DNA from: Oscillospiraceae bacterium
Lineage (GTDB): Bacteria > Bacillota > Clostridia > Monoglobales > WRAG01
Reading direction: 5' to 3'
Assembly: GCA_009780345.1 (NCBI GenBank)
Contig: WRAG01000004.1
Location: 19,826-83,825, forward strand
Length of the DNA: 64,000 nt
The translations under genes were made by a program, and so were the position numbers. Positions within the stretch are counted from its first letter, which is position 1; each line of letters starts with the position of its first letter. Under the pieces are notes generated by a model. The model saw nothing but the letters and a program-made list of their open reading frames with translations. It was not told the origin of the DNA and ran no database searches. This document shows positions 38,337 to 61,639 of the stretch, in pieces.

Positions 38337-38811
38337 TTCAGTAAGCCGGACGGTCGCGTGCATATGCGGCAACGCTTTGCATGAGGAAAGTCCGAGCTCC
38401 ATAGGGCAGGGTGCCGGATAACACCCGGCGGAGGCGACTCCAGAGACAGTGCAACAGAAATAAACCGCCCTAGGAGTGTTCAGTTATGAGTAACCGGAGA
38501 CCGGTCGGCGCACAAAAACCATGCGAAAACCAACAATCGAGCCGCCAGGCGAGCAAACTGGTCCCTGAATACTAATAACTGAACACTCCTAGGGTAAGGA
38601 TGGAAAGGCGAGGTAAGAGCTCACCTACCCTTCGGCGACGAAGGGTGACATGTAAACCTCACTCGGAGCAACATCCGAACGTGGAAATACGCCTGCCCGG
38701 CGTTCCACAAAGTCGATGGCATGAGGCGTGTAGTAATATACGCCCTTAGATAGATGACCGTTAATTGCTCTTCGGGACAATGATACAGAACTCGGCTTAC
38801 GGCTTACTGAA
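38337..38811 (+). ncRNA. rnpB: RNase P RNA, type A, with greatly expanded P12
   Basis: GAGGAAAGTCCGAGCTCC (P4 5' strand), CAGTGCAACAGAAATAAACCGCC..GTAAGGATGGAAAGGCGAGGTAAGAGCTCACC, ACAGAACTCGGCTTAC (P4 3' strand), and P1 pairing TTCAGTAAGCCG/CGGCTTACTGAA. Confidence 0.85.
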
Positions 38812-38923
38812 ATTTAAATTAAAAATTTTTACAAAAATCAAGGAATAAAGATTTTGAGAAACACAAAATCTTCATGAGAGTTGTTAACAAAATTAAAATT
38901 TTGACAACTCTCGAAAAAAGTTC

Positions 38924-38952
38924 TTGACAAATTTTTCACATTATGCTATATT
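38924..38952 (+). promoter_or_regulatory. Promoter of rpmG-secE-nusG
   Basis: TTGACA (38924-38929), 17 nt ending TGC (extended -10), TATATT (38947-38952). Confidence 0.6.
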
Positions 38953-39138
38953 AATGTGTACCCTCGTTTTGAGGGATTTATTCGCGGCGCAAAAATACTT
39001 GCTTGCAAGGTAATTTTTGCAACGACAGCCGAGTGTATACTCCGCGATTTGTCGCGGAATGTGCCTAAAAGGCACAAGCGCAGAATTTGTTCTGCGGTAT
39101 GGCACTCGTCATTTGTAAATTGGATAGGAGTTGAAAAT

Positions 39139-39288
39139 ATGAGAACAAAAATTACTTTAGCGTGCGGCGAGTGCAAGCAACGCAACTATGACACAATGAA
39201 AAACAAGAAAAATTCACCGGACAGGCTTGAAATGAACAAGTATTGCAGGTTCTGTCAAAAGCACACCGCTCACAAAGAAACGAAGTAG
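39139..39288 (+). CDS. rpmG: 50S ribosomal protein L33
   Basis: [49 protein letters not shown], with RBS GGAG. Confidence 0.9.
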
Positions 39289-39419
39289 GTCAAAAGTGTC
39301 CGAATGGACATGAGGGTCCGGGAAACATCCCGGCCGCCGGCTCGGCGGACTCTAATGACGGACTTCATGTTTTTATAGTGGTTCTGTCAAAAGCACACCG
39401 CTCACAAAGAAACGAAGTA
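39248..39419 (+). repeat. Perfect 40-bp direct duplication of the rpmG 3' end flanking an R2 element
   Basis: GGTTCTGTCAAAAGCACACCGCTCACAAAGAAACGAAGTA occurs at 39248-39287 and at 39380-39419. The first copy is followed by G (TAG stop) and the second by A (TAA). Confidence 0.9.
39293..39367 (+). repeat. R2 structured element, copy 1
   Basis: AAAGTGTCCGAATGGACATGAGGGTCCGGGAAACATCCCGGCCGCCGGCTCGGCGGACTCTAATGACGGACTTCA. Confidence 0.8.
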
Positions 39420-39470
39420 AGCGGTATATCTGTATACATTTGCGCATTAATGTAAAGGAGATTCATTAAT

Positions 39471-39680
39471 ATGGAAAAGGTAAAACGTAATCCGATAACA
39501 GGAATCGGGCGATGGTTTCGCTCAACTATGAGCGAGCTTAAAAAGGTTGTTTGGCCAAGTTTTTCTAAAGTGCGGCAAAACACGCTTATAGTTTTAGTCT
39601 ACATCCTTATCGTAGGCGCTATTATTTGGGCGCTTGATTATGCGTTCGGCTGGATAATGAGACTTGTGCTCGGTAATTAG
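39471..39680 (+). CDS. secE: Preprotein translocase subunit SecE
   Basis: 69 aa. ..ELKKVVWPS..TLIVLVYILIVGAIIWALD with a single TM helix. Canonical position before nusG. Confidence 0.85.
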   Translation: MEKVKRNPITGIGRWFRSTMSELKKVVWPSFSKVRQNTLIVLVYILIVGAIIWALDYAFGWIMRLVLGN

Positions 39681-39722: not shown

Positions 39723-40244
39723 ATGGCTGATAAGGCAAAATGGTATGTTGTGCATACCTATTCGGGATACGAAGACAAGGTTAAAGCTAATCTTGAGAAA
39801 ATTATAGAAAACCGCAATATGCAAGATGTTATTGTGGATATTCGCGTACCTAAAGAAGAGGTCACCGAGAAAAAAGACGACAAAGTGCGCACGGTTATGC
39901 GTAAAACTTTTCCGGGTTATGTAGTTATTAAGATGGAAATGACCGACGTAAGTTGGTTTGTCGTTCGAAATTGCCGCGGCGTTACCGGATTTGTCGGTCC
40001 CGGCGCGAAACCGGTCCCTCTTACCTCCGCCGAAATTGATAATATGGGAATCGAGAGGAAAGTTGTCGTTCTCGATTACGAAGTCGGCGATAACATTCGG
40101 GTCAGATATGGCGCGTTTGAAGGTTTCTTCGGAGTAATCGAAGAAATCAACACTGAAAAGAACAAGGTTTCAACCAAAATTTCAATGTTTGGTCGAGATA
40201 CAACTATCGACCTAGAGTGTGACCAAGTCGAAGTAGTGAAATAA
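39723..40244 (+). CDS. nusG: Transcription termination/antitermination factor NusG
   Basis: KWYVVHTYSGYEDKVKANLE.., ..FPGYVVIKM.. and a C-terminal KOW domain. Confidence 0.95.
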   Translation: MADKAKWYVVHTYSGYEDKVKANLEKIIENRNMQDVIVDIRVPKEEVTEKKDDKVRTVMRKTFPGYVVIKMEMTDVSWFVVRNCRGVTGFVGPGAKPVPLTSAEIDNMGIERKVVVLDYEVGDNIRVRYGAFEGFFGVIEEINTEKNKVSTKISMFGRDTTIDLECDQVEVVK

Positions 40245-40347
40245 ATTTGTGTGAAATTACGCGCCTAGCGTCCGAACGAACTTCTAGAGTATATTGATAC
40301 ACGTCGGCGTCCGCTCGAACACTATGCACGCAATTTGACACAAATTT
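40243..40347. repeat. R3 hairpin element, copy a
   Basis: Ends are AAATTTGTGTGAAATTACGCG ... CACGCAATTTGACACAAATTT (inverted). Starts inside the nusG stop codon. Confidence 0.7.
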
Positions 40348-40385
40348 CAATAATTATTAAGCAATTTATGACTGCAAATTTTTAT

Positions 40386-40499
40386 ATTTGCGTCAAATTG
40401 CGTGAGATTTCGCCTAAAACGCTCAGAAGTGTATATAAAGATATCCGACTGGGCGTTTTAGGTGAAATGTCGCGTGATTTCACGCAAATCCTAAACTGG
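40386..40499. repeat. R3 hairpin element, copy b
   Basis: ATTTGCGTCAAATTGCGTGAGATTTCGCCTAAAACGC ... GCGTTTTAGGTGAAATGTCGCGTGATTTCACGCAAAT. Ends 12 nt before the rplK start. Confidence 0.7.
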
Positions 40500-41011: not shown

Positions 41012-41698
41012 ATGGGTAAAAAATATGTAGACAGTTTAAAACTTATCGACAGAGATAAGCAATACGATCCGGCGGAAGCGCTTAACTTAGCTTGCAAAAC
41101 CGCCAAAGCGAAGTTTGACGAAACAATCGAACTTCACGTTAAATTGGGAGTTGACTCTCGTCACGCTGACCAGCAGGTCCGCGGCGCGGTTGTTCTTCCC
41201 AACGGAACCGGTAAAGTTGCGCGTGTGTTAGTGTTCGCGAAAGACGCGAAAGCTGACGAAGCAACTGCGGCGGGCGCTGATTTTGTTGGCGCGGAAGACT
41301 TGGTTCAAAAAATTCAAACCGAGAATTGGTTCGACTTTGACGTGGTTGTCGCAACTCCCGACATGATGGGACTTGTCGGACGAATCGGTAAAACGCTTGG
41401 TCCGAAAGGCTTAATGCCTAACCCGAAAGCGGGAACGGTTACACCTGACGTTACCAAAGCGATTTCTGAAATCAAATCAGGTAAAATCGAATACCGTTTG
41501 GATAAAAGCAACATCATCCACTGTCCAATCGGCAAAGCGTCGTTCGGCGCTGACAAGCTTGCGGAAAACTTTAACGCGCTTATGGGCGCGATCATTAAAG
41601 CGAAACCGTCGGCGGCGAAAGGAACTTACCTTAAAAGCGTTTCGGTTGCAAGCACCATGGGCCCCGGCGTTAAGGTGAACTCGTCCAAGCTTGTATAA
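41012..41698 (+). CDS. rplA: 50S ribosomal protein L1
   Basis: 228 aa. ..[31 protein letters not shown]... Confidence 0.95.
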
Positions 41699-41771
41699 AG
41701 TGCCCGAATGGGCATGAGGGTCCGGGAAACGTCCCGGTCGCCGGCACGGCGGACCCTAATGACGGACCTCA
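41697..41771 (+). repeat. R2 structured element, copy 2
   Basis: AAAGTGCCCGAATGGGCATGAGGGTCCGGGAAACGTCCCGGTCGCCGGCACGGCGGACCCTAATGACGGACCTCA. Begins within the rplA stop codon. Confidence 0.8.
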
Positions 41772-41798
41772 AATTTGATAGAAATTAATTTAAATATT

Positions 41799-41924: not shown

Positions 41925-42086
41925 AGGGTTATTGGCACTAATAAGAAGCATTAGATTTTTGAGTGAATTTTTCGTTAGGTAAGGCAAAAATTCGCAGACT
42001 GTAATTTGTTTACCGCAAGAATTTTTAACGAAACCTGGCGGAAAATTCGCCAAAAAAATGATATTTCGTTTAGTGCCAATAACCCT
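41925..42086. repeat. 162-bp insertion bounded by a perfect 17-bp inverted repeat in the rplJ leader
   Basis: AGGGTTATTGGCACTAA (41925-41941) and TTAGTGCCAATAACCCT (42070-42086). Confidence 0.7.
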
Positions 42087-42109: not shown

Positions 42110-42883
42110 ATGCCAAGTAATAAGGTTTTGGATCAAAAAAAGGAAGTTGTATCTTCCATAGTTGAAACTTTCAAATCATCTGCGGCGGGCGTATTGATTG
42201 ACTATCGCGGGCTTAACGTTGCCGAAGATACCGAGCTTCGTAACAAATTCCGTGAAGCGGGCGTTACTTACACCGTTATCAAAAATACCCTAACTCGTTT
42301 CGCGGCGAAAGAAGTCGGTTTCGACGAACTTGACGGGATCCTGCACGGTCCGACATCGCTTGCGACAAGCGAATCTGACGTAATCGCGCCGGCGAAAATT
42401 ATCGCTGAATTCGCGAAAGACCACCCTGTGGTTGAAATCAAAGCCGGATTTGTTGAAGGAAAAATCGTAAGCATCGACGAAGTTAAGGCGCTTGCGGCAA
42501 TCCCGGGCAAAGAAGTGTTGCTTGCGAAAATGTTGGGAAGTCTTATGGGACCGCTTACAGGTCTTGCTGTTGCGCTTAATGCCGTTGTTGAAAAAGACGG
42601 TAAACCTAGCGCAGAGGAACCCCCTGCGGCAGAAGTTGCAGCAGAAGCTCCCGCTGAGGCAGTTGTAGAAGAAGCGGCAGCGCCTGAGGCTGTAACCGAA
42701 GAAGCTCCTGCGGAAGCAGTAGCAGAAGAAGCGGCACCTGTTGAAGAGGTTGCTGCTGAACCGGCGGCTGAGGAAGCTCCCGCTGAAGCGGCAGCAGAAG
42801 AGCCTGCGGCTGAAGCTGACGTTGACGAAGTGAACGAAGAAAAATCGGACGCGCCTGCGGAAGATGTAGACGCAACTGAATAA
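42110..42883 (+). CDS. rplJ: 50S ribosomal protein L10 with ~90-aa Ala/Glu/Pro-rich C-terminal extension
   Basis: The N-terminal ~165 aa are typical L10 (..VLIDYRGLNVAEDTELR..). The tail from ~42605 is EEPPAAEVAAEAPAEAVVEEAAAPEA... Confidence 0.9.
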   Translation: MPSNKVLDQKKEVVSSIVETFKSSAAGVLIDYRGLNVAEDTELRNKFREAGVTYTVIKNTLTRFAAKEVGFDELDGILHGPTSLATSESDVIAPAKIIAEFAKDHPVVEIKAGFVEGKIVSIDEVKALAAIPGKEVLLAKMLGSLMGPLTGLAVALNAVVEKDGKPSAEEPPAAEVAAEAPAEAVVEEAAAPEAVTEEAPAEAVAEEAAPVEEVAAEPAAEEAPAEAAAEEPAAEADVDEVNEEKSDAPAEDVDATE

Positions 42884-47331: not shown

Positions 47332-48069
47332 ATGATTAAAGTAAAAAACTTACATAAACGGTTTGGGAAACTTGAGGTGCTTTGCGGTATCGATGTGCAT
47401 ATCGAACAAGGCGAAAAGGTCGTTGTCGTCGGGCCGTCGGGTTCGGGGAAGAGCACATTTTTGCGATGTTTGAACCTGCTTGAAACGCCCACCGCCGGCG
47501 AAATATGGATTGAGGACGACTGCATTTTTTCGGATGAAATCAAGCATAACAAGACCAACGTAAACTTGATTCGTCAGAATATGGGAATGGTTTTTCAGCA
47601 GTTTAATCTGTTTCCACACTTGACGGTAATGCAAAATATCACGCTTGCGCCGATTAAGCTTAAAAAACGCTCGAAAAGCGAAGCGTATCAGCTTGGTTTG
47701 TCATTGCTTGAGCGGGTTGGACTGCTTGATAAGGAAAACTCCTATCCCGCGCAACTCTCGGGCGGACAGAAGCAAAGAATCGCTATCGCTCGCGCGCTTG
47801 CCATGGAACCGTCGATAATGTTGTTTGACGAGCCGACGTCGGCGCTTGACCCGGAGATGGTCGGGGAAGTTTTGGAGGTTATGAAAGGTTTGGCGAACGA
47901 TGGAATGACCATGGTTGTCGTAACGCACGAGATGGGATTCGCGAAAGAAGTCGGGTCGCGGGTTTTGTTTATGGATCAAGGGATCATCGTTGAGCAAAAC
48001 ACGCCGGAAGAGCTGTTTTCTAATCCGCAGAACGAGCGAACGCAAGCATTTTTGAGTAAAATTTTGTAG
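47332..48069 (+). CDS. Amino-acid ABC transporter ATP-binding protein
   Basis: Walker [10 protein letters not shown], signature LSGGQKQR, Walker [12 protein letters not shown]. GlnQ-like length. Confidence 0.9.
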
Positions 48070-48075
48070 CGGACA

Positions 48076-48126
48076 AATCGCCCGAATGGGCACCGCCGGC
48101 TCGGCGGACTCTAATGACGGACATCA
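48076..48126 (+). repeat. R2 structured element, copy 3 (internally deleted)
   Basis: AATCGCCCGAATGGGCACCGCCGGCTCGGCGGACTCTAATGACGGACATCA, 7 nt after the ATPase stop. Lacks the CCGGGAaacaTCCCGG hairpin. Confidence 0.7.
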
Positions 48127-48257
48127 CAGCGAACGAAGTGCACTATTTAAAATGTCATATTCTGCACAAAGTTGGACTATACTGTAATGCGATGTATAAT
48201 GCGATGAGTTGAAAAAATTAAAATTAATATATTTTCTTAGGAAAGGAAATGGTAGCA

Positions 48258-56305: not shown

Positions 56306-56516
56306 AATTTGTGTCAAATTGCGTAATATTTCGTAGAAAGCGTGATGGAGCGTGTATAACAGATACCCGACATCGCGTTTTCGGTGGGCGGTCAACTGCA
56401 TCAAATCACACTTCGTCCAAATACGACTCGTGTTCTTTGGCAGTTTTCACAGGGGAGTTATTAGCGAAATCAAGATTTCAATAACTCTCCCAAGATTGCG
56501 TGATTTCACGCAAATT
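56306..56516. repeat. R3 hairpin element, copy c
   Basis: AATTTGTGTCAAATTGCGTAATATTTCG ... AGATTGCGTGATTTCACGCAAATT. The right end overlaps the stop codon of the 12S gene by 2 nt. Confidence 0.7.
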
Positions 56517-61510: not shown

Positions 61511-61639
61511 AAATTTGCGTCAAATTGCGTAAGATTTCGTCGAAACAAGAGGTGAAAAACCGCAGGCGTACATCAAGTACGTTGAGGATTTTTTGTCCTC
61601 GCAGTTTCGGCGAAAGATTGCGTGATTTGACGCAAATTT
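61511..61639. repeat. R3 hairpin element, copy e
   Basis: AAATTTGCGTCAAATTGCGTAAGATTTCGTCGAAAC ... GTTTCGGCGAAAGATTGCGTGATTTGACGCAAATTT. Ends 1 nt from the permease stop codon. Confidence 0.75.

Follow-up and report, generated by a model that had tools for sequence, protein, structure and literature searches.

Organization of the rpmG locus

The DNA analysed here is a stretch of 64,000 nucleotides from an Oscillospiraceae bacterium (NCBI GenBank assembly GCA_009780345.1, contig WRAG01000004.1, positions 19,826 to 83,825 of the forward strand), referred to below as the window. Positions are those of the window unless a contig is named, and the features of the rpmG locus and the R2 copies all lie on its forward strand. 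The window contains rpmG (39139-39288), which encodes the 49-residue ribosomal protein L33 and is followed by secE. A copy of a small hairpin-forming repeat, named R2, is found at the 3' end of rpmG between two copies of a 40-nt sequence of this gene. The gene was identified from its translation, and the same protein was called as PF00471 on two related contigs, L040 and L041. NCBI assigns the L1, SecE, and NusG proteins of the window to a metagenome-assembled genome of Oscillospiraceae.

The 40-mer GGTTCTGTCAAAAGCACACCGCTCACAAAGAAACGAAGTA is present at 39248-39287 (copy A1) and again at 39380-39419 (copy A2), with 100% identity and a start-to-start distance of 132 nt. An exact repeat of this length is expected about 1e-15 times by chance in 64 kb (own calculation, from about 2e9 pairs of positions and 4^40 possible 40-mers). 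A preliminary description of this DNA, made from the sequence alone, had reported a perfect 40-bp duplication separated by 92 bp that contain R2 copy 1; both pairs of coordinates and the spacer proved exact to the base.

Copy A1 is the functional 3' end of rpmG, and supplies its final 13 codons together with the TA of its stop. The stop codon TAG (39286-39288) is a hybrid: TA comes from the gene, and G from the insert. Copy A2 is a non-coding relic of the rpmG end. Together with the next base, A, it forms TAA (39418-39420), and on this side the secE leader is still joined as in the native sequence (TA|A GCGGTA...). The translation agrees with the earlier assignment of TAG to the first copy and TAA to the second. 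A2 is in frame with A1, because the spacing of 132 nt equals 44 codons. Downstream, the native rpmG-secE spacer with its ribosome-binding site and then secE itself (39471-39680) occupy 39420-39680, unchanged relative to a relative with an empty site. No promoter was detected inside the duplicated 40-mer, through which it could have been retained for secE expression, and no tRNA or tmRNA target is present at the locus.

The insert between the two copies, designated B (39288-39379), has 92 nt and consists of three parts: a 9-nt junction filler, the 71-nt R2 copy 1, and a 12-nt tail. The filler (39288-39296) is G followed by GTCAAAAG, and comparison of R2 5' ends placed it outside the R2 consensus. 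Its 8-mer (39289-39296) equals positions 7-14 of the 40-mer; this 8-mer occurs eight times in 128 kb (both strands), three of them at the rpmG locus. The insert opens with GGT, the same three bases that start the 40-mer. R2 copy 1 (39297-39367) is of the long type, and is predicted to fold with the P1 hairpin (TGTCC-GAAU-GGACA) first and then a three-way junction, in which an AGGGU/ACUCU stem encloses the hairpins H2 and H3. The conserved UAAUGACGGACUUCA lies downstream of the junction. The AT-rich tail TGTTTTTATAGT (39368-39379) is missing from the empty site and arrived with the element; a similar tail, AATTTGATAGAA, follows R2 copy 2 of the window.

Empty site in relatives and polarity of the change

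An exact look-up of the L33 protein retrieved L040 (JGI 3300009826) and L041 (ENA ERZ27257300). Both contigs encode an identical L33 protein, and their flanks are 93-98% identical to the window. Each contains a single 40-mer closed by TAA, and alignment with the window leaves a clean gap of 132 nt, which corresponds to B plus one copy of A. The distance from rpmG to the secE start is 51 nt in L040 and L041 vs 183 nt in the window. The empty site that the preliminary description proposed to look for in related strains is thus present, exactly 132 nt shorter and with L33 unchanged, in agreement with its view of an insertion that duplicated the target and left the L33 frame intact. It had placed the insertion in the last codons of rpmG. 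The end of rpmG was indeed hit, and the position can be refined: the left junction falls within the native TAA stop, after its second base, and the right junction 40 nt upstream of this point in target coordinates. If R2 had been joined at 39247|39248 without duplication, L33 would have been cut inside its second CxxC zinc knuckle and its frame shifted, because B has 92 nt, which is no multiple of three; A plus B has 132 nt.

More distant relatives include L048 and L049 (92% identity in ribosomal protein L1), L051, and the contigs L053 and L054 from NCBI metagenome-assembled genomes (86-87%). A single rpmG end closed by TAA was found in L040, L041, L048, L051, L053, and L054, and no relative carries the duplication without R2. 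The contigs of the other close NusG variants end before the rpmG junction. As all of these relatives have a single copy, the window represents the derived state, in which insertion and target duplication left the L33 protein unchanged. Both 40-mers of the window have CAC at a codon where all the relatives have CAT, so the duplication arose within the window lineage, after this substitution. The insertion and duplication at rpmG are, as judged from this comparison of alleles, recent and lineage-specific.

In L048, a different R2 subtype is found behind its own rpmG stop, in the arrangement TAA-GCGG-[R2]-ribosome-binding site-secE, with no duplication of the rpmG end. This copy (2579-2676 of L048) is a diverged V-type with the core GTCGAACCCTAATGACGAAC; it fills the rpmG-secE spacer and adjoins the ribosome-binding site of secE. 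The rpmG/secE junction has therefore been struck by R2 twice independently, in the window and in L048. The locus provides a before-and-after snapshot of a small repeat entering a core translation and secretion operon, with an empty state, a filled state, and a second independent hit.

Support from other assemblies

The window is identical to the ENA contig L001, which was assembled at k=141, longer than the 40-nt repeat. The independent JGI contig L002 has an identical A1-B-A2 structure, and differs from the window at four sites, all in rplK, so that it represents a distinguishable haplotype. The Logan contig L003, assembled at k=31, starts exactly 10 nt into A2. This break is predicted for a real repeat, since 40 nt with two successors (G or A) must split a de Bruijn graph at k=31. 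L003 ends within R2 copy 2, where another Logan contig begins. The A1-B-A2 structure, as known from these assembled contigs, is most likely real and no obvious assembly artefact.

Automatic gene calling missed rpmG on the filled contigs L001, L002, L038, and L039, and found it on L040 and L041, which have the empty site. The insertion and duplication appear to disturb the automatic annotation of this 49-codon gene. There is a practical side to these observations: the filled allele defeats gene callers, and R2 repeats fragment assemblies made at short k.

As a separate observation, several homologues of L1 (P0004-P0011 and P0014-P0018; 290-391 aa) have internal duplications, and some join two diverged allele copies. 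They were considered as in-frame duplications related to the rpmG event, and this was rejected; they are singletons from single metagenome contigs and contain no R2. They are probably chimeras from strain-mixing assembly, which calls for caution by database users.

The R2 family

Three matches to the R2 core were found in the window, vs 0.02 expected. Copy 2 with its tail occupies 41701-41783 (element 41701-41771). It lies 2 nt after the rplA stop TAA (41696-41698) and upstream of the L10 leader, is missing from three relatives, and has no flanking duplication. Copy 3 (about 48070-48155) is of a short type, without H2 and with a 3' H4 hairpin. It directly follows the TAG stop (48067-48069) of the ATPase gene of an ABC transporter, and is also present at the orthologous locus L030. 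The 20-nt core was found on 32 contigs of one JGI metagenome series, and a profile search extended the family to 38 copies, with up to two or three copies on some contigs. The local density can be high: L014, a contig of 6.3 kb, has three copies.

The R2 elements are modular. The first module is the P1 hairpin, either TGCCC-GAAT-GGGCA or, depending on the subtype, one of at least eight unrelated hairpins. It is followed by an optional AATGAGGG-H2 hairpin, the H3 hairpin, and the conserved ACYCTAATGACGGAC-WTCA, with either a fourth hairpin or an AT-rich tail after that. R2 is conserved in its 3' part, and its 5' part varies in a modular way. The possibility that the variable P1 is built from host sequence was rejected; L010 and L024 have the same P1 in different genes. 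The long form has a predicted consensus of P1 and a three-way junction, and across 17 copies pairing is seen in 97.9% of cells. The changes in the stems are mostly G-C to G-U, with one compensatory flip, and the statistical support for the fold is modest, with 17 of 500 shuffles scoring equally high. Between orthologous loci, R2 is better conserved than the flanking coding sequence. The hairpins are all internal, and no inverted repeat joins the two ends of the element.

Among 185,579 species-representative genomes the core had only two matches, both by chance inside unrelated sequence, and it was absent from viral contigs in two scans. In Rfam 15, nothing overlapped R2 at the gathering score, and at E-values up to 10 only chance-level matches to unrelated eukaryotic families appeared. 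A resemblance to hammerhead, hepatitis delta virus (HDV), or twister ribozymes was looked for by eye and was not supported. An exhaustive HMMER search of 1.8 billion representatives with the R2-encoded peptide found only unrelated repeat proteins, which indicates a narrow family and does not reveal a donor. No prior description of the R2 sequence or of such elements was found in the literature. R2 is, by these searches, an undescribed family that is confined to one uncultured gut Oscillospiraceae lineage.

Placement of R2 within genes and at stop codons

At least 25 of the 38 R2 copies lie inside long open reading frames, all in sense orientation. Among the intragenic copies, 22 are read in one frame (...AGSADPNDGLH...), a few in a second frame, and none in the third, which carries TAA-TGA. 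The hosts include ValRS, TruB, an HisF-type protein, FtsY, YbeY, TrmK, PRAI, and saccharopine dehydrogenase, as well as carboxynorspermidine-decarboxylase-like proteins, PSP1, and a large serine recombinase. Pfam matches confirm YbeY, TruB, the HisF-type protein, FtsY, TrmK, PRAI, and others as housekeeping proteins. The preference for frames free of stops agrees with R2 being translated as part of the host protein. Two of the hosts have further features. The large serine recombinase on L033 (about 225-420 of this contig) contains R2 in the minority frame, a few residues past its catalytic-serine motif (YCRLSEED...), and its Pfam Resolvase match starts only beyond the R2 insert. The valS gene on L020 contains two R2 copies, one of which is absent from the orthologue L034.

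The other copies lie against stop codons; gene-end copies were found at six independent loci, where they start 0-11 nt past the stop codon. The adjacent stop is TAG at four of these six, vs 15% of the long open reading frames in the window. In both cases for which an outgroup is available, the native TAA was changed to TAG upon insertion, with the left junction after the second base of the stop: at rpmG in the window, and at rplA in L051, where the insert is a hairpin module. This module (2096-2140 of L051, GGGCGAACAGTGTTCG...) is an unrelated single hairpin located right after rplA, whose stop is TAG vs TAA in the window, L050, and L048. The rplA stop was thus struck twice, by R2 in the window and by the unrelated hairpin in L051.

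The sense orientation, the frame bias, and the excess of TAG could be explained by selection alone. A candidate basis for such selection is that the three frames of R2 give a loop-like peptide rich in Gly, Pro, Asp, and Asn, an Arg-rich peptide, and a stop-containing sequence, respectively. Alternatively, R2 and its sister hairpin modules might form an 'ORF-aware' mobile class (aware of open reading frames), whose insertion would be coupled to transcription or translation or would proceed through an RNA intermediate, for example target-primed and similar to short interspersed elements (SINEs). This idea is speculative, and little probability is assigned to it. If it were true, the 40-bp duplication would have been left by a second nick of variable stagger, and not by accident.

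Duplication at other R2 copies

The flanks of all the copies were compared by exact-word and Smith-Waterman searches. The z-score was 26 at rpmG and below 5 at all other copies, and no flanking repeat of at least 12 nt was found at 37 of the 38 copies. The preliminary description had proposed to look for similar long duplications at other R2 copies; none was found at any of the 37. In the valS pair L020/L034, the net gain amounts to 78 nt, or 26 codons, and its ends carry no direct repeat; the filled/empty comparison at rplA (R2 copy 2) likewise showed no duplication. Among the three recent copies, one has a duplication. As a 40-bp duplication is absent from the other 37 copies, and the two further filled/empty pairs have no duplication either, it is not a signature of R2, as far as these comparisons indicate.

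Among bacterial insertion sequences (IS), the longest reported target duplications are those of the IS1202 group, with 16-28 bp (PMC10132070). The 40 bp at rpmG exceed this maximum, in line with the earlier remark that the duplication is longer than those of typical transposons.

Origin of the duplication

The 40-bp repeat is regarded, with moderate confidence, as a one-off by-product of the resolution of the second junction in a single R2 insertion event, by either a filled-in staggered break or a template switch, and as having been kept since it leaves L33 intact. This reading is adopted because the duplication is longer than those known for IS, and because R2 lacks both terminal inverted repeats and coding capacity and duplicates its target nowhere else. 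We infer the mechanism from the sequence of the alleles. R2 would be a non-autonomous mobile element, which would usually end up in frame and in sense within genes or at a stop codon, leaving the target unduplicated. At rpmG, two routes to the duplication can be envisaged. One would start from nicks about 40 nt apart on the two strands, with the resulting overhangs filled in prior to being joined to R2. The other would involve a polymerase that copies R2 and then returns to the target at a site 40 nt back from where it had left. Of the two, a copying or template-switch process is favoured by the filler GTCAAAAG, which is derived from the target and lies at the left junction. The duplication may have persisted as the configuration that leaves both L33 and the region upstream of secE intact. 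This would be one way to neutralise an insertion: the gene end is duplicated, and a hybrid stop codon is created.

Several points weigh against this reading. Only one event with a duplication was found, so that the mechanism is not generalisable. No enzyme, donor copy, or intermediate for R2 was found in the fetched loci, and no donor copy with the flanks GGTCAAAAG...TGTTTTTATAGT in the window or any fetched locus. The match of the filler has a chance probability of about 0.01 (own estimate) in an A-rich sequence, which makes it suggestive but not decisive. A two-step history, or the integration of a circle or foreign fragment, leads to the same final sequence. Most of the other R2 copies are old, and short duplications could have decayed there. 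The other filled/empty pairs are two only, and their junctions are blurred by strain divergence. Moreover, the A1-B-A2 structure is known from assembled contigs.

Two known mechanisms were also considered and set aside. A TA-dinucleotide target with duplication of TA, in the style of IS630 or mariner, fits the junctions inconsistently. A diversity-generating retroelement is contradicted by the full (100%) identity of the repeats and by the adjacent genes, secE, nusG, and rplK, which include no reverse transcriptase.

In place of a single event, a 40-nt tandem duplication of the rpmG end might have come first, with R2 then inserted after its TAG stop, between the two copies. The tandem duplication alone would yield this TAG, from the TA of the first copy and the G of the second. 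Since R2 and the related hairpin modules are repeatedly found at or within stop codons, the left junction would be canonical for the family, and the GGT shared by the insert and the 40-mer would be expected if the insertion fell just inside the second copy. However, two rare events would be needed at one site. The relatives are all either empty or carry R2 without a duplication, and none has an allele with two adjacent 40-mers; nor is there any microhomology beside the 40-mer that could promote a slippage duplication. The filler would be left unexplained unless an extra deletion of 5 nt is assumed. Such a two-step history appears unlikely.

We also regard as improbable the import of a fragment containing the rpmG end and R2, either as a small circle or as DNA of a relative, by recombination through the 40-nt homology. 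The integration could have been of the Campbell type, or anchored by homology on one side and illegitimate on the other, and would formally resemble attL/attR at the 3' ends of tRNA genes. An A-B-A arrangement with native outer junctions is the expected product of a single crossover with a circle carrying A and B, and relatives with R2 right behind rpmG do exist, such as L048, at a junction struck independently at least twice. The R2 of L048 is, however, of a different subtype and at a different position. No recombinase is encoded in the 92-nt insert, and the other R2 copies have no att-like repeats. Because both 40-mers are identical, including CAC, the donor would have to be practically the same strain. 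A double-stranded circle of 132 bp would also be sterically implausible, on general grounds of DNA mechanics.

A genuine target-site duplication, made by a machinery with a wide and variable stagger (a target-primed, SINE-like retroelement or an unusual transposase), seems quite improbable. The geometry would be accounted for if the bottom strand was nicked at 39247|39248 and the top strand at the stop codon. The constant 3' part with its AT-rich tail, the variable 5' parts, and the extra nucleotides at the 5' junction are reminiscent of insertions of retroelements that lack long terminal repeats (non-LTR), by analogy, and most of the other copies are old enough for their duplications to have decayed. 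Nevertheless, the two other filled/empty pairs have no duplication, and the variation on the 5' side concerns entire modules, in that whole hairpins are exchanged or absent, and is no simple truncation. There are no terminal inverted repeats, and 40 bp is above all reported duplications of bacterial IS. Neither a reverse transcriptase nor a transposase could be connected with R2 in the fetched loci, among which no search was aimed at reverse transcriptases.

An assembly artefact, in which two haplotypes were joined into a false duplication, is very hard to credit: the source is a metagenome, the same databases hold the chimera-like L1 proteins, and the ENA, JGI, and Logan assemblies may share related or identical read sets, but the structure recurs in a second haplotype distinguished by four single-nucleotide differences, the Logan contig breaks as predicted at k=31, the 40-nt repeat is far below the assembly k of 141, no other known allele has the R2-to-A2 junction from which a chimera could be built, and the 132-nt spacing, hybrid stop, and intact outer junctions are biologically coherent.

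Other elements in the window

Several further features of the window were noted. The RNase P RNA gene (RF00010, 273 bits; 38338-38814) contains a long hairpin of 127 nt (38468-38594), with 38-nt arms that are 84% complementary. Only a 24-nt hairpin is found at this position in L040. The long hairpin, in a variable arm of the ribozyme, represents either an expansion or the insertion of another small element. Four small hairpins make up a 128-nt block (38983-39110) that separates the rpmG promoter (TTGACA-17-TATATT, 38924-38952) from the rpmG ribosome-binding site. This block is missing in L040 and L041, with about 3 nt (ATT) repeated at the junctions, and it has GAATTTG-type loops as in some R2 modules.

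Between the L10 leader (RF00557) and rplJ lies a classical MITE-like element (miniature inverted-repeat transposable element) of 162 nt (41925-42086). It has perfect 17-nt terminal inverted repeats (AGGGTTATTGGCACTAA / TTAGTGCCAATAACCCT), and is missing from three relatives (L050, L048, and L051). In contrast to this element, R2 in the same window has no inverted-repeat ends. The rplJ gene (42110-42883) encodes an L10 protein of 257 aa, owing to an Ala/Glu/Pro-rich tandem-repeat extension (repeat 42613-42828). The length of L10 is 233-258 aa in the close relatives, and the usual 168 aa in the distant L053 and L054. Another small repeat family rich in inverted repeats (ATTTGCGTCAAATTGCGTGAGATTTCGCC...) is present at 40243-40489 (between nusG and rplK), 56307-56516, and 61513-61638.

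Comparison with known systems

Microhomology-mediated break-induced replication (MMBIR), template switching of the fork stalling (FoSTeS) type, and the repair of paired nicks can each produce a foreign insert together with a target duplication and a filler templated nearby; these events are described mainly in eukaryotes and experimental systems. The rpmG event resembles MMBIR and FoSTeS-type events, by analogy, in its target duplication and the short local filler at the junction. To our knowledge, no bacterial small-repeat family spreads by template switching or filled-in breaks.

The rpmG site also resembles integrative elements at the 3' ends of tRNA, tmRNA, or protein genes: direct repeats of the 3' end bracket the insert, the upstream copy is functional, and the downstream copy is a relic. 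Unlike these elements, the cargo is 92 nt without an integrase or any open reading frame, the insert lies between rpmG and secE, and the other R2 copies neither share an att-like core nor use the repeat. An atypically long direct target repeat also flanks the insertions of the IS1202 group. The members of this group are autonomous IS of 1.5 kb with a Tn7-like DDE transposase and terminal inverted repeats, and produce duplications of 16-28 bp at every copy (PMC10132070). The R2 insertion at rpmG differs, with a duplication of 40 bp that occurs once only, around a 71-nt element without inverted-repeat ends.

The Correia, ERIC/RU-1, BOX, and RUP repeats occur in many copies, are non-autonomous, and have secondary structure; some of them lie within genes and are translated (PMC10969869; PMC2759123). 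R2 shares with MITEs and small intragenic repeats that it is multi-copy, non-autonomous, and structured. R2 has neither the terminal inverted repeats of MITEs nor their short target duplications of constant length, and no autonomous parent IS turned up in the fetched loci.

The closest likeness, in functional class and not in homology, is to the Rickettsia palindromic elements (RPEs). RPEs are small, hairpin-forming, lineage-restricted repeats that are found in frame in many housekeeping genes and have no coding capacity of their own; they show no recognisable target duplication and have no known mobilising enzyme (PMC10969869). Like them, R2 is multi-copy, restricted to one lineage, built of hairpins, and located in frame in unrelated conserved genes, where it keeps the reading frame open. 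By sequence, R2 is related to no described family, as judged from Rfam. The elements also differ in other respects. R2 resides in gut Oscillospiraceae, of another phylum than Rickettsia; it is modular and about 50-100 nt long vs about 150 bp for RPEs; and it uses precise stop-codon sites, where one recent copy has a 40-bp target duplication of a kind not reported for RPEs. How such elements move, and why they respect the reading frame, is a long-standing question, and the polymorphic R2 copies in co-occurring strains allow direct analysis of their junctions. R2 thus brings RPE-like in-frame hairpin elements, a phenomenon best known from the obligate intracellular Rickettsia, into a free-living gut Firmicute lineage.

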